DNA of 64,000 nt from Escherichia phage RB3. The translations under genes and the position numbers were made by a program. Below, in pieces: positions 39,249-62,823 of the stretch; positions within the stretch are counted from its first letter, which is position 1; each line of letters opens with the position of its first letter. The notes below the pieces were generated by a model. The model searched no databases. It saw nothing but the letters and a program-made list of their open reading frames with translations, and was not told where the DNA came from. The stretch is from sequence record KM606994; one strand, written 5' to 3'.

Positions 39249-39719
39249 TTAATCATGTTTCCACACCCCATCGGTATTTGACCAAAGTCGCTGATTATCT
39301 GATCCTCGCCACAGCTTTTTAGTCGGAAGATTTTTCTCATACTTCCCATCAATAATAACATCAACATATTTAAGCATTTCTAGTTGTTTAATATCTTCAA
39401 ACTTATATCCTGTCCACAACCAAATGCTTTTATTGGGATAAAGATTTTTTACTGTTTGAACAATGCAATGAATAACATCTCGATTGTCAGGATAGAGAGG
39501 GTCTCCTCCGGTTATAGTCAATCCTTCTATATAATCATTATTCAAACATTCAATTAATTGTTCTAGTGTTTCACCAGTGAATGGAATACCATTTCTAGCA
39601 TTCCATGTTGATTTATTATAACACCCTTCGCATTTATGCAAACAACCTGTAACGAAAAGAACGACCCTGCATCCAGGGCCATTCACGAAGCAGCACGGGT
39701 ATATTCTGTCATAATTCAT
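39249..39719 (-). CDS. nrdG: anaerobic ribonucleotide reductase activase NrdG (radical SAM, 156 aa from first ATG)
   Basis: CxxxCxxC cluster (CLHKCEGC); track start is TTG, first ATG gives the T4 NrdG length. Confidence 0.85.
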   Translation of the reverse strand: MNYDRIYPCCFVNGPGCRVVLFVTGCLHKCEGCYNKSTWNARNGIPFTGETLEQLIECLNNDYIEGLTITGGDPLYPDNRDVIHCIVQTVKNLYPNKSIWLWTGYKFEDIKQLEMLKYVDVIIDGKYEKNLPTKKLWRGSDNQRLWSNTDGVWKHD

Positions 39720-40546
39720 AATAATATCCAATTTTTCCAAGCTTCATCAGTAGAATTACAGCGTTTTAGTATAAGATGTCTAGAAACTTTTATGGCATTT
39801 GAGCACTTTTTAATTGAATCATATTTAATACCGTCAACTGAAACGGTTTTGCTAGTTGGAGAAATTTTTCCATACATTGGATTTTTTGAACCAACTTGAA
39901 GTCCTTTTAAAGCTTTTGAAAGCTTTTGTCTAGATTCCAATGACATGGGAGAATTCTTTTTACCTTCAATAATTCGCTTGCGATGAAGTTCGCGTTCTTC
40001 TTCACTCAAAGAATTGTAATATTTTTTAACACCGTTTGATATAGATAATTTATCTTTCTCAGACCGCTCTCCAGCTAATTTACTTCTAACATCTTTTCGC
40101 TTCATAGCTATGCTTACGGCTTTATTTAAATTTGCTTGATGCTCTGGCGTACGTTTATATTTCTTTAAAGCACGTGAAATAGCTATTTTAGTTTCTTCTG
40201 TTCTCTTTTTACCTTTATTTGCTAAACTATTTTTGCGGCGATGTTCAAGTGTCTGTTCATAGGCAGTTCCACCTTTTCCACCAGGTTTAATATTATATGT
40301 ATTTTCTTTTAGACAATACTCTTCGGTTACGAGTTCAGCTTCTTTATCATACATTTGTTTTTCATTATCAAAAACATGTAAAATTTCTTTATTAAAATTT
40401 TTTCTACCATATTTTAATAAAGCGGCACGAATCAATGTTCCTGACCCCATATAACCGTCATTTATGTTATCGGTGCTATGCGCACCGATATATTCCTTTG
40501 AATTAATTATATTTGTTATTTTATAAATTATATAATACCTATGCAT
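39716..40546 (-). CDS. free-standing GIY-YIG homing endonuclease (276 aa)
   Basis: N-terminal GIY-YIG motif (YYIIYKITN...EYIGAHST), basic DNA-binding C-terminal region; lies between nrdG and nrdD. Confidence 0.8.
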   Translation of the reverse strand: MHRYYIIYKITNIINSKEYIGAHSTDNINDGYMGSGTLIRAALLKYGRKNFNKEILHVFDNEKQMYDKEAELVTEEYCLKENTYNIKPGGKGGTAYEQTLEHRRKNSLANKGKKRTEETKIAISRALKKYKRTPEHQANLNKAVSIAMKRKDVRSKLAGERSEKDKLSISNGVKKYYNSLSEEERELHRKRIIEGKKNSPMSLESRQKLSKALKGLQVGSKNPMYGKISPTSKTVSVDGIKYDSIKKCSNAIKVSRHLILKRCNSTDEAWKNWILL

Positions 40547-42356
40547 GTTTTACTCGTTTTACCATTTCTTTCATTTTACCTAAATTCCATGGGACAACGC
40601 TAGGAGTTCCAAGATATCCGCATGTTCTTCTTATTGTGTTCATCTTTTTGGGATCAGTTTCTCCACAAATAGAACAAACAAATCCGTTTTCAGTAGGAGT
40701 CATTTCATGGGTACTTCCGCATGTAAAACATTTATCTACTGGCATATTAACACCAAAATAATCTAAATGTTGTGCAGCATAATCCCATACGGCCTCAAGA
40801 CCCTTTAAGTTATTTTTCATATCAGGAAGTTCAACATAAGAAATGTGACCACCTGTCGCAATGAAATGATATGGCGCTTCACGAGAAATCTTTTCAAACG
40901 GAGTAATATTTTCTTCTACTGAAACATGGAAACTGTTAGTGTACCAACCTTTATCGGTAACATCTTTTACGCTTCCATATTTTTCTGTATCGAGTTTACA
41001 GAAGCGATAACAAAGGTTTTCAGCAGGAGTCGAATATAAACTAAAAGCAAATCCAGTTCTTTCAGTCCACTGTTTAAGATGAGCATTCATTTTAGTTAAA
41101 ATTTCCTGTCCAATATCACGACCGACAAGAATATTCAATTCATGAATACCAATGTATCCTAGGGACACTGAACTTCTACCGTTTTTAAATAACTCAATTA
41201 TGTCGTCATCAGGTTTAAGACGAACCCCGAATGCACCTTCTTGGTAAAGAATAGGAGCAACAGTAGCTTTAACTCCTTTTAAGGAACTAATTCTACACAT
41301 CAAGGCTTCAAAACACAGGTCCATTCGCTCATCAAACAATTCAGTAAATTTCTGTTCATTGAACTGTGTTCCAATATAAGAATCTAACGCGATGCGAGGA
41401 AGATTCAGTGTTACAACACCAAGATTATTACGTCCATCAAGAATTTCATTACCAGTCGAATCTTTCCATACGCTCAAGAAACTACGGCAACCCATTGGAG
41501 AAACAGGAACAGATGAACCAGTGATAGCTTTATTGTTCTTAGCTGAAATAATATCAGGATACATCCTTTTGCTTGCACACTCTAGAGCAAGCTGCTTAAT
41601 ATCATAGTTCGGATCGTCTTTGTAAAGATTAACGCCTTCTTCGACGAACATAACAAGCTTAGGAAAAATAGGAGTTATCCCATCACGACCGAGACCTTTA
41701 ATACGATTTTTCAGAATTGCTTTCTGAATCATTCGTTCAGTCCAGTCAGTTCCCGTACCAAATGTAATTGTTACAAAAGGAGTTTGTCCGTTTGAACTAA
41801 AGAGAGTATTTACTTCATATTCATAAGCTTGGAATGCATCGTATACGTCTTTTTCTGTTTTAGATTGAGCATAATTCAACGCATCGGCGATTTGCCATTT
41901 TTCTGCATCCTCAATATGTTTTGCATAGGTGCGTTTAACATAAGGAGAAAGTACTTTATCTACATTAGCAAAAGTCGTTCCGCCATATTGGTGAGAAGCA
42001 ACCTGTGCAGTAATTTGTGCCATAATTGCAGTAGCAACACCGATTGATTTAGGAGTTTCAATCTGCGCATTACCAAGCTTAAATCCGTTCTCAAGCATTC
42101 CTTTTAAATCTACTAAACAGCAATTAGTAAATGGAAGAGCAGGGGAATAATCAATATCATGGAAATGGATAATTCCGCTTTCATGCGCTTTCATAATAAA
42201 AGACGGGACCATATTTTTGGCAATGTGTTTAGACACAATACCAGCCATAAGGTCCCGTTGAGTTGGAAAAACACGAGAATCTTTATTAGCATTCTCGTTT
42301 AAAAGGTCTTTATTAGTTTTATGAATCAATCCTTCAATTTCTTTTTCAATTGTCAT
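40539..42356 (-). CDS. nrdD: anaerobic ribonucleoside-triphosphate reductase NrdD (605 aa), uninterrupted
   Basis: C-terminal glycyl radical motif RRTCGYLG and Cys zinc site; single ORF, no intron. Confidence 0.92.
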   Translation of the reverse strand: MTIEKEIEGLIHKTNKDLLNENANKDSRVFPTQRDLMAGIVSKHIAKNMVPSFIMKAHESGIIHFHDIDYSPALPFTNCCLVDLKGMLENGFKLGNAQIETPKSIGVATAIMAQITAQVASHQYGGTTFANVDKVLSPYVKRTYAKHIEDAEKWQIADALNYAQSKTEKDVYDAFQAYEYEVNTLFSSNGQTPFVTITFGTGTDWTERMIQKAILKNRIKGLGRDGITPIFPKLVMFVEEGVNLYKDDPNYDIKQLALECASKRMYPDIISAKNNKAITGSSVPVSPMGCRSFLSVWKDSTGNEILDGRNNLGVVTLNLPRIALDSYIGTQFNEQKFTELFDERMDLCFEALMCRISSLKGVKATVAPILYQEGAFGVRLKPDDDIIELFKNGRSSVSLGYIGIHELNILVGRDIGQEILTKMNAHLKQWTERTGFAFSLYSTPAENLCYRFCKLDTEKYGSVKDVTDKGWYTNSFHVSVEENITPFEKISREAPYHFIATGGHISYVELPDMKNNLKGLEAVWDYAAQHLDYFGVNMPVDKCFTCGSTHEMTPTENGFVCSICGETDPKKMNTIRRTCGYLGTPSVVPWNLGKMKEMVKRVKHA

Positions 42357-60210: not shown

Positions 60211-60531
60211 TTATTCTTTAAATCTGATCAATTTATTCATAGACTTTGAAACTTCTGCACGAACCTCATGTAGATTTTTGAGCTGTTCAAGACGCTGCGC
60301 ATAGTAAGCAATTTCATCTTCTTCGAGACAGTCCTGTGAATCTTCTTTAAGATAACGCGCATAGTCCTGGAAAGCATTACGAATTACTTCTTGGAAGTCA
60401 TCAAGACTTTGAATTTTCTTAGGAGCAGCAGATACACGACGAGGGGCAGTATAATACTCATAACCAAACCCTGCGCTTAATTGAGCCATTAGTATTTTTC
60501 CTCTGGTTGGAACACAGCACGGCAAGCCCAC
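60211..60531 (-). CDS. hypothetical protein (106 aa)
   Basis: ORF track. Confidence 0.4.
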
Positions 60532-60791
60532 ATACTGGCTTCTTTGAGTTTCGTTTTAGCAATAGTTAACTGATCGAGGCTTTCAGCATAATTCTTCGCG
60601 AGTTCATCATCTTCACAGCTATCGAATGCTTCCCAGAATTCATCGTATAAAGCATCAAAGATAAGTCCTAAACGAACTTCAGCGTCTTTGATAGCATTCA
60701 CTTTACCGATTTTCTCTTCAGTATGCGGCTTATAACCTTTAATGTCTTCAATCATATTTGACTTCCTCACCAGTACATAAATCATATTCAA
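60489..60791 (-). CDS. hypothetical protein (100 aa)
   Basis: ORF track; start may be internal. Confidence 0.4.
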
Positions 60792-60969
60792 CTAAACGAA
60801 TAGGTTCATGAATGCCATATCCTTGAACAGAAATTTCTGTTGTAGGATAAATTCCATCAATATCACCCATATTCCAGGCTTCATTAAATTGCTGTTCGCC
60901 TGAATTACTAAACCACTCGGCGAAAGCATTTAGCACATCTTTAGAACCTTCAATAATTATCTTTGCCAT
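60748..60969 (-). CDS. hypothetical protein (73 aa)
   Basis: ORF track. Confidence 0.4.
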   Translation of the reverse strand: MAKIIIEGSKDVLNAFAEWFSNSGEQQFNEAWNMGDIDGIYPTTEISVQGYGIHEPIRLVEYDLCTGEEVKYD

Positions 60970-61331
60970 TACAGACTCTCAGTAAAGGTACGAGCGATAA
61001 CGTCGCGCTGCTGTTCCGGAGTCAGAGAGTTAAAGCGAACTGCATAACCTGATACACGGATGGTCAGCTGCGGATATTTTTCCGGATGCTTAACTGCATC
61101 TTCCAGAGTTTCGCGACGCAGAACGTTAACGTTCAGGTGTTGACCACCTTCAATTTTAACTGTAGGTTGTGTTTCAATTTCAATTTCACGGGCATGCAAA
61201 CCGTAGAAAATTTCTGGGTCTACAAAAGAGTCCTCTTTAAAAGTTTTAGAGACAATAATTCGTGCTTGAATACCATCTTCAAAATAAATAGTACCTTTGT
61301 GTGTGCCTTCAAGAATTTGATATGCTTTCAT
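60969..61331 (-). CDS. grcA: autonomous glycyl radical cofactor GrcA/YfiD-like protein (120 aa)
   Basis: C-terminal ~58 aa ([59 protein letters not shown]) carry the RVSGY glycyl-radical motif and match remembered E. coli GrcA almost exactly. Confidence 0.75.
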
Positions 61332-61338
61332 ATAAACC

Positions 61339-61719
61339 TCAATTAGAAAATAAATTTATCCAAGATTGTTCTTTAATTAAAAACGGCTCAGAATCATATG
61401 CCATTAAACTCTGTGTGATTAGTCCTTTAAAAGGACCATCAATAAATTCCATGGTAAAATATGGAATTTTATTCATTAGCCGTGCATTAGGAGCAGTACA
61501 CAAAACTCTGCATCCTTTGAATACGCCTTTTTGTAATTTGTATTGCTTGGGATAAAATTCGCTCAAAATGTTATTATTTGCTAAAATTTCAAAATGATTC
61601 ACCAATTTATTTTTAATAGTTTTTGGCGAAAAATAAAGATATTCGAAAAGCTGAGTGTCTGTCATCATTGCATTCCGATTACGAAAAACTGTGGACGAGT
61701 AATACCACCAATACAACAT
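61339..61719 (-). CDS. hypothetical protein (126 aa)
   Basis: ORF track; overlaps upstream ORF by 55 nt in another frame. Confidence 0.35.
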
Positions 61720-62207
61720 TTAATATTACAGCAGCAGTGTACAGTGTCAATATGGACACTATAAATCTTATCCATATCAGGAGATTTGACAGGCTCATCA
61801 ATTATATACAAAATTCGCGAAAGCGATAAACCTCTGAACTTGCTTCCTTTATTACCTATAAAACTGCGCACAGAATCAGTAAATAAACGAAAACGTATAT
61901 CATCATTAGAATAACGCGAAAATTCCTTTTTAATGTTATTTGCAGAAATTTTAGCGTAAGCTGAAGTATTAGAAAGAACAATAACTGTTCCGCCATCATA
62001 CAGCCAATTAGCGGCAAAGTTAGTCACAGCAATTGATTTACCGGATTGACGTCCACCATCTATACGAAGTGTGCAGTACTCTTTAAATAAATGTAATGAA
62101 TAAGGTACATGAAATCCACTATTACAAATTTCTTCTACTCTAGCATCAGAATGGTGTGTAAAAGCATTCATCAGGGATAGATAAGGACCAGTTAAAAATG
62201 TTCTCAT
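61665..62207 (-). CDS. P-loop NTPase-like protein (180 aa)
   Basis: Walker A GGRQSGKS and Walker B ILYIIDEP; odd Cys-rich C-terminus in the overlap region. Confidence 0.4.
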   Translation of the reverse strand: MRTFLTGPYLSLMNAFTHHSDARVEEICNSGFHVPYSLHLFKEYCTLRIDGGRQSGKSIAVTNFAANWLYDGGTVIVLSNTSAYAKISANNIKKEFSRYSNDDIRFRLFTDSVRSFIGNKGSKFRGLSLSRILYIIDEPVKSPDMDKIYSVHIDTVHCCCNIKCCIGGITRPQFFVIGMQ

Positions 62208-62349: not shown

Positions 62350-62823
62350 TTATTTGAACGATTTAACGTACTGAATAGAACCTTTACTATTCACGAAAGC
62401 GATTTTACCATTTTTATTATACATGGTAGCAGTACGCTGATAGCCATAAGTTTGCTTACCAGATTGATAACCAACTAATGCAAAATTATCTTCACCCATT
62501 TTATTCTGTTTAGCGCGAATGCGTTCATGACCATGCGCCATAAGAACCTTAGCATCACCAGTTGCAATGGATCGACGAGTTTTTTCATCTTCAACTGTAT
62601 TAACAAAGTCGTCAAATGAATCAAATTTAGCATGAGATTTATTATACAGTTTTCCATCTACTGCATAATTATATCCCTGTACATCCATCTCAACTTCTGT
62701 ACCATCATCCAGTACAGCAGTGATTTTCTGTCCTTTTTTAAATTTCAAAAGATCAGTAAAAGATTCAGCAATAATTTGAGAATTAATAGCTGCTTCAGTA
62801 ATAAATTCTTGATATGTTTTCAT
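62350..62823 (-). CDS. internal protein (capsid-targeted, IPII/IPIII-type, 157 aa)
   Basis: N-terminal MKTYQEFITEA matches the T4 capsid targeting sequence; located upstream of e. Confidence 0.65.
   Translation of the reverse strand: MKTYQEFITEAAINSQIIAESFTDLLKFKKGQKITAVLDDGTEVEMDVQGYNYAVDGKLYNKSHAKFDSFDDFVNTVEDEKTRRSIATGDAKVLMAHGHERIRAKQNKMGEDNFALVGYQSGKQTYGYQRTATMYNKNGKIAFVNSKGSIQYVKSFK

Follow-up and report, generated by a model that had tools for sequence, protein, structure and literature searches.

The gene at positions 60969 to 61331 of the DNA analysed here (a 64,000-nucleotide stretch of Escherichia phage RB3, sequence record KM606994, hereafter called the window) is very probably vs.6 of a Tequatrovirus, i.e. 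a T4-type phage, and encodes a standalone spare-part module for the host pyruvate formate-lyase (PFL). Our comparisons show vs.6 to be a mosaic: its 5' half is old, AT-rich and of phage type, and its 3' block is derived from Escherichia grcA. The gene and its biochemical role were already known, and their identification as such adds nothing new. What is added here is that host capture and strong constraint both apply, that the junction lies near the boundary of a functional module, and that an independent counterpart derived from Klebsiella exists. A strictly lytic phage thus holds one functional module that is near-identical in DNA to a host gene, and phages of two genera do so independently, each with the gene of its own host. 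This offers a probable example of host-to-phage gene conversion in T4-like phages. It also illustrates neatly, in nature, the closeness with which an auxiliary protein of a virus has to fit the enzyme and the activase of its host. The gene and its parts, all on the minus strand, are as follows.

60969..61331, minus strand: vs.6 coding sequence, 120 amino acids plus stop, identified as an open reading frame; autonomous glycyl radical cofactor, ortholog of T4 vs.6.
61152..61331, minus strand: phage-type 5' half, codons 1-60, GC 0.33 and GC3 0.18; passed down among T4-like phages, and remote kin of the GrcA N-terminal region.
60969..61151, minus strand: 3' block, host-derived, codons 61-120 plus stop; equivalent to GrcA 68-127 and PflB 700-759, the structured glycyl-radical module.
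61044..61058, minus strand: RVSGY glycyl-radical fingerprint, residues 92-96, located from the sequence and by alignment to 6owr and 1h16.
61047..61049, minus strand: codon of Gly95, the radical glycine, equivalent to GrcA Gly102 and PflB Gly734 (residue numbering as in PMC12338860).

The first-pass annotation had proposed a GrcA/YfiD-like spare-part protein for this open reading frame, with a C-terminus identical to that of the host over about 58 residues. We observed that the frame runs from ATG to TAA exactly where it had been placed, and that the proposal agrees with the published biochemistry of T4 Y06I. The Pfam family Gly_radical (PF01228) matches residues 60-101 of Vs.6 with an E-value of 2.2e-18. 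The best solved structure is PDB 6owr_A, the E. coli autonomous glycyl radical cofactor (GrcA/YfiD), which matches at 4.6e-42, so that the similarity to GrcA is significant; the RVSGY motif is present as had been claimed. In the alignment to 6owr, residues 61-120 of Vs.6 (EGGQHLNV...RVSGYAVRF...TFTESL) are identical to GrcA 68-127 at all 60 positions, slightly more than the length first given. The N-terminal half, also described earlier as divergent, shares with GrcA only 13 of 39 amino acids and 48% of nucleotides over the alignable codons 22-60.

Vs.6 has the features of the GrcA/YfiD family, namely a C-terminal PFL-type glycyl radical domain with the RVSGY glycine. It is a small standalone protein of about 14 kDa without the catalytic barrel, and its alignments cover the whole of GrcA and only residues 697-759 of PFL. 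The whole protein scores 154.6 bits against the GrcA equivalog model of NCBIfam (TIGR04365; IPR011140), under the cutoff of 170, because its N-terminal half is divergent and shorter. It differs from E. coli GrcA in this N-terminal region (7 residues shorter), in being phage-encoded, with a 5' half rich in AT, and in its translational coupling to the phage genes that flank it. The likeness to GrcA lies in the identical residues 61-120, in 98.4% DNA identity there, in the RVSGY glycine and in the validated activity of the T4 ortholog. The C-terminus of PflB (residues 697-759; PDB 1h16 and 2pfl) is also similar to Vs.6 (4.8e-26), with 49 of 63 residues identical (78%) and the same fingerprint, and it is this segment that the spare part replaces. 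Vs.6 is not a full-length pyruvate formate-lyase of the PflB/TdcE type, since it matches only the last ~63 PFL residues: it consists of the module alone, without the catalytic ten-stranded barrel and without Cys418/Cys419, and the donor of its DNA was grcA rather than tdcE. The label 'pyruvate formate-lyase' carried by many phage vs.6 records is a misnomer. Other labels found on such records are '2-ketobutyrate formate-lyase', 'acetyltransferase-related protein', 'ribonucleotide reductase subunit' and hypothetical.

The assignment to vs.6 comes from the T4-type relatives. The DNA of the gene is 100% identical in phages RB5, RB6, RB7, RB9 and RB10, and the vs.6 gene of RB51, for which the RefSeq product name is GrcA, is 98.6% identical in nucleotides. 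In T4 there is only one matching place, 119/120 amino acids being identical (99.2%); the sole amino acid change, which falls in the divergent half, is Thr54 here for Pro54 in T4; the nucleotide differences number 9 in total. We take this single GrcA-homologous place of T4 to be Y06I, gene vs.6, a name that was not provided by any database output. It has the same mosaic structure with an E. coli-like 3' block and the genomic position annotated in RB51. The annotated order of this syntenic region in RB51 is e, denV, ipIV, vs.8, vs.7, vs.6, vs.5, vs.4, vs.3, regB, vs.1, vs. Pfam matches in the window are consistent with this order for RegB (PF10715), SLT and Acb2: regB and the SLT domain of vs.1 lie downstream of the gene and lysozyme e lies upstream, and the gene has vs.7 and vs.5 as its neighbours in the early region that runs from e to regB. 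Because of the published biochemistry of T4 Y06I and the near-identity of the two proteins, both gene and function are to be regarded as known. By tblastn, vs.6 was found in 1587 phage records, including many Straboviridae genera, T5-like Demerecviridae, a jumbo Eneladusvirus, and Aeromonas and Vibrio phages. In 2006, vs.6 was already listed among eleven ORFs conserved across T4-like genomes, with a tentative link to nucleotide metabolism (PMC1524935).

The first-pass annotation had suggested recent host capture or strong constraint as the reason for the near-identity to the host. We observed that both apply. For capture, the nucleotide comparison with host grcA that it had proposed gave 180 identical positions out of 183 in the 3' block, and all three differences are synonymous. 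The longest exact run between the block and E. coli grcA is 134 nt. By BLAST, nucleotides 179-363 of the gene (60969..61153) match grcA in 5426/5426 complete E. coli genomes, at 97.3-98.4%. E. coli tdcE is only 75.9% identical to the vs.6 block in nucleotides, and E. coli pflB is only 83.5% identical to the related block of the Klebsiella phages (this latter value does not refer to the block of the window). In the pairwise alignment the junction at codon 60/61 is sharp: upstream of it the gene is scarcely alignable to grcA, and downstream the homology ends at the stop codon. Across the junction the GC content steps up from that of the phage-type half to the level of E. coli grcA, the block having a GC of 0.49 and a GC3 of 0.43. 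The substitution rates in the 3' block were as follows.

This phage versus E. coli: dS 0.069, dN 0.
E. coli versus another Escherichia species: dS 0.045, dN 0.
E. coli versus Citrobacter amalonaticus: dS 0.36, dN 0.
E. coli versus K. pneumoniae: dS 0.60, dN 0.023.
E. coli versus Salmonella: dS 1.02, dN 0.027.

Salmonella and E. coli differ by 16% of nucleotides over the same block. In a neighbour-joining tree, the blocks of T4, RB and Mosigvirus phages are nested in Escherichia (bootstrap 0.975). The 3' block is, on this comparative evidence, Escherichia DNA, gained after Escherichia split from its relatives, and not merely a conserved peptide; the reasons are the 180/183 identity, a dS of 0.07 against about 1 between E. 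coli and Salmonella, only 48% identity in the 5' half, and the jump in GC. The transfer went from host to phage: in composition the block is host-like, and its place in the enterobacterial grcA tree is the right one. The 5' half of vs.6 is 97% identical to T4, 89% to Mosigvirus and 72-73% to Jiaodavirus.

A host-like block in a phage genome could also be an artefact, a chimera assembled from phage and E. coli reads: host DNA does contaminate phage preparations, and the GC content of the block is host-like. The same mosaic with the same junction is, however, found in 631 independently sequenced phage genomes, where the block is 95-99% and in no case 100% identical to that of E. coli; moreover the reading frame is unbroken and ends in a phage-type 3' tail. 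This recurrence refutes the artefact, which we consider next to impossible. Below 95%, the identities listed for phages against the E. coli block drop to about 87%, and the 90-95% band holds no more than 14 records.

The grcA gene was proposed as a PCR marker gene for Straboviridae in a 2026 paper (PMC12845203). Since the 3' half of the gene is about 98% identical to host DNA, any primers placed there would be likely to amplify E. coli or Klebsiella DNA as well.

Of the three positions at which the block departs from E. coli grcA, two lie in the last 10 nt of the gene (GAG AGT), in the following element.

60967..60980, minus strand: phage-type 3' tail of vs.6, GAG AGT CTG TAATG, recognised by comparison with grcA and with Klebsiella phages.

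The converted tract therefore probably ends just upstream of this tail. The TAA stop of vs.6 shares TAATG with the ATG of vs.5 (60748..60969), and the GAGAG of the tail is likely the ribosome-binding site of vs.5. We infer that the tail is ancestral phage sequence, kept for this ribosome-binding site and for the overlapping start. The boundaries of the tract suggest that the route was likely homologous recombination or gene conversion within the conserved block. Within Tequatrovirus/Mosigvirus, dS is 0.12-0.17 in the block and 0.35-0.44 in the 5' half, over few sites; on raw differences, Fisher's test of block versus 5' half gave p = 0.003-0.009, the count for the 5' half being inflated by amino acid changes. 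Tequatroviruses isolated on Yersinia or Serratia still have the E. coli-type block, which therefore reflects the history of the lineage and not simply the isolation host.

For constraint, the lineages that were not converted are informative. Cronobacter phage leB keeps 60/60 residues of the E. coli type at a dS of 1.7, and Klebsiella phage Matisse keeps 60/60 residues of the K. pneumoniae type at a dS of 2.5. Since every residue was kept while synonymous sites became saturated, constraint is also extreme, and these comparisons argue that the glycyl-radical module is under near-absolute purifying selection. In these two lineages, exact runs of 15-20 nt with the host gene persist. Purifying selection would thus keep the module similar enough to the host gene for recombination.

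These same lineages lend themselves to another explanation, in which nothing but purifying selection and selection on codon usage acted on an anciently acquired gene, with no recent transfer of DNA: leB and Matisse demonstrate that a host-identical peptide can be maintained in this way. In the phage studied here, however, the synonymous sites match too. For the same peptide, dS to E. coli is 0.069; the value for Salmonella and E. coli is 1.02, and that for leB and E. coli is 1.7. The 134-nt exact run, the step in GC3 at the junction, the Escherichia-specific residues of the block with its clustering in Escherichia, and the parallel Klebsiella-specific block in Klebsiella phages also speak against selection alone. 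The synonymous-site data refute it, and we regard it as extremely unlikely; recent capture of Escherichia DNA combined with constraint is the reading that we retain.

We also carried out the search with the K. pneumoniae grcA block, taken from chromosome-like records of a plasmid collection, and obtained 80 phage records at 95-99%. Several 4-5 Mb records of this collection are evidently mislabelled chromosomes, for example CP125156.1, K. pneumoniae strain 176 'plasmid unnamed2', of 5.37 Mb. In Nispero, KPV15 and PSE-D1, phages of the genus Jiaodavirus, 168 of 173 positions (97.1%) agree with K. pneumoniae grcA, a stretch of 101 nt being exact in Nispero. We observed that the Jiaodavirus block begins at the same codon as that of the window (GAA GGN GGT, Glu61) and that the 5' halves of these three phages are phage-type, with a GC content of 0.36. 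Their similarity to K. pneumoniae grcA breaks off 10-25 nt short of the stop codon and gives way to the phage-type tail GAG GCA CTA TAA. A phage-type tail (GAGAGTCT / GAGGCACTA) is common to the Klebsiella phages Matisse, KP179 and Nispero, that of Matisse being near-identical to the tail in the window. The vs.6 of Jiaodavirus (Nispero, KPV15) thus resembles that of the window in the gene itself, in the junction codon, in the phage-type 3' tail and in having a host-derived block, but the donor is K. pneumoniae grcA and not E. coli grcA. Jiaodavirus blocks are 13-15% different from the block of the window, close to the 12% that separates the two host grcA genes. At the protein level the Klebsiella-type block departs from that of the window at two residues, Glu77Leu and Lys81Glu, to which the Jiaodavirus gene adds Ser119Ala within the phage-type tail; the Karamvirus and T5-like versions of the block are diverged. 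These sequences indicate that the Klebsiella-derived block of Jiaodavirus is the product of a second event, which occurred independently of the Escherichia one.

Between phages KP179 and Nispero, identity is 98.9% over the 5' half but drops to 93.4% over the block (Fisher p = 0.011), and the ends of the tract vary among Jiaodavirus members; taken together, these observations point to more than one replacement within Jiaodavirus. KP179 is closest to K. pneumoniae only across 173 nt (91.3%), and the clade uniting KP179 with K. pneumoniae has a bootstrap of 0.18. The KP179 block (locus L083, 1681..1863) has a patchwork appearance: its first 44 nt are those of K. pneumoniae grcA, and of the later positions some carry variants as in 'Escherichia sp. 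ESNIH1' and others variants found in neither. In KPV15 (locus L097, 421..783), vs.6 has lost the reading frame in its 5' half but retains an intact 3' block, 97% identical to K. pneumoniae grcA; RefSeq gives here a 51-amino-acid 'GrcA' and a separate 49-amino-acid ORF. Either a sequencing error has shifted the frame or the gene is decaying.

No phage reached 95% when the search was made with the grcA block of Salmonella enterica, of Enterobacter asburiae or of Yersinia artesiana. The best full-length phage matches to these blocks were at about 84-87% among the matches listed, 3 records each of the Salmonella and Enterobacter searches lying in the 90-95% band outside the matches listed. Conversion is therefore not universal. 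At least two independent events share the left boundary, one from Escherichia to Tequatrovirus/Mosigvirus and one from Klebsiella to Jiaodavirus. It is conceivable, with the chances in our estimation slightly below even, that the 3' module of vs.6 is repeatedly overwritten by the grcA of the current host, via gene conversion confined to the conserved block. If true, strictly lytic phages that degrade host DNA would have in this a natural mechanism by which an auxiliary metabolic gene tracks the host. We did not find this mosaic or host-tracking pattern described in the literature searched, which did not extend to Wagner 2001 or to the T4 genome reviews, and an earlier notice is possible.

Two spare parts have been validated, YfiD and T4 Y06I: PFL-AE activates both, and oxygen-cleaved PFL is restored (Wagner et al. 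2001, BBRC 285:456, as summarised in PMC8683613). This proof was obtained with T4 Y06I, one substitution (T54P) away from the protein of the window. In E. coli, the radical is transferred from GrcA Gly102 to PflB Cys419 (PMC12338860). The C-terminus of YfiD is a duplicate of the PFL C-terminus, and its residues 1-60 matter for radical installation only; the junction that we observed in vs.6 (GrcA residue 67/68) falls within a few residues of this boundary between functional modules. The following sequence of events may be proposed. During infection at low oxygen, O2 would cleave active host PflB at Gly734, and the host activase PflA (PFL-AE) would place a radical on Gly95 of Vs.6. The C-terminal module of Vs.6 would then dock in the damaged PflB, replacing residues ~700-759, and pass the radical to Cys419, so that the repaired PflB would again turn pyruvate into acetyl-CoA and formate. 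Up to this point the scheme is published for T4 Y06I. The phage could benefit because infection shuts off the synthesis of host PflB and GrcA while fermentative ATP is still needed. It could also benefit because formate would serve as reductant for its own anaerobic NrdD/NrdG. No phage phenotype of vs.6 was found in the searchable literature, and we infer both this benefit and the link from formate to NrdD.

One could also imagine that Vs.6 is a decoy, which soaks up host PflA or occupies PflB and so redirects or shuts down host fermentation. The module recognised by PflA is indeed the same as in PflB and GrcA, and the N-terminal region, which tunes radical installation in YfiD, differs in the phage. 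Nevertheless T4 Y06I was reported to restore and not to inhibit PFL activity (PMC8683613), and the conservation of every residue of the catalytic module, Gly95 included, argues for a working radical carrier. A decoy is thus very unlikely, and we keep to a repair function.

The enzyme to be repaired is another matter. The first-pass annotation had noted that the same window encodes the glycyl-radical enzyme NrdD and its activase NrdG, which is correct, and had suggested NrdD as a possible target of rescue, which our results do not support. The two genes lie ~19 kb from vs.6.

40539..42356, minus strand: nrdD, 605 amino acids, uninterrupted; PF13597, 7e-172.
39249..39740, minus strand: nrdG, radical-SAM activase of NrdD; PF13353, 2.7e-48, and PF04055, 2.4e-07.

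Between nrdD and nrdG, and overlapping both ends, there is an ORF resembling GIY-YIG/NUMOD3 homing endonucleases (39716..40546).

As a spare part for the phage NrdD, Vs.6 would receive its radical from NrdG and take the place of an NrdD C-terminus cleaved by oxygen. Apart from the presence of both genes in the window, this idea finds some encouragement in Aeromonas phage PX29 (locus L096, 1359..4947), where the gene order is nrdD, nrdG, vs.6, nrdC, nrdH and vs.6 overlaps the end of nrdG by 23 nt, and in the speculation of PMC8683613 on spare parts for other glycyl radical enzymes. When we compared Vs.6 with the NrdD of the window by BLASTP, however, no significant similarity was detected (E = 6, residues 403-446, away from the radical loop), and Vs.6 thus shows no similarity to the C-terminal radical loop of this class III ribonucleotide reductase. 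Its module is instead that of GrcA, with the high identity to the PflB C-terminus given above, and its DNA was copied from host grcA. The published activity is rescue of PFL with PFL-AE, and PFL is the only experimentally validated target (PMC8683613). For these reasons (no similarity to NrdD, a module of the PFL/GrcA type, DNA from grcA) we rejected NrdD repair as the main function of Vs.6 and consider it most unlikely; host PFL remains the preferred target.

A link between vs.6 and NrdD is likelier to be indirect, via formate made by PFL rather than via repair. Formate is the reductant of characterised NrdDs, and a formate-binding site was discussed for T4 NrdD (PMC4493059). The order in PX29 fits a functional tie to anaerobic nucleotide reduction and does not separate the repair and formate ideas; among the phages examined, the adjacency of vs.6 and nrd genes was seen in this one distant phage only. 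A weaker suggestion, hinted at only by the order nrdD-nrdG-vs.6 of PX29, is that in some phages Vs.6 may be activated by the phage NrdG instead of host PflA.

Finally, we looked at the signals surrounding vs.6.

61337..61340, minus strand: putative Shine-Dalgarno GAGG (AATTGAGGTTTATATG on the minus strand), 5 nt before the ATG of vs.6; read from the sequence.
61723..61750, minus strand: promoter-like site TTGACA-16-TAATAT, 10/12 matches, upstream of vs.7-vs.6; candidate early promoter only.

This putative Shine-Dalgarno sequence shares nucleotides with the TGA stop codon of vs.7 (61339..61719), the ORF upstream of vs.6. The region contains 13 promoter-like sites and 9.7 +/- 3.3 are expected in shuffled sequence, i.e. 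they are not in excess, and the candidate promoter is weak for this reason. Two neighbouring ORFs on the same strand were also observed. The first (60489..60791, 100 amino acids), two genes past vs.6 and in the position of T4 vs.4, matches the Acb2/Tad1 hairpin domain PF24729 (1.2e-19). It is presumably Acb2, an anti-CBASS cyclic-nucleotide sponge, and the small-ORF cluster of vs.6 would therefore include an anti-defence gene. The second (62350..62823, 157 amino acids) matches DUF7412 (5.7e-96) and occupies the place of the internal virion protein Ip4 of RB51.
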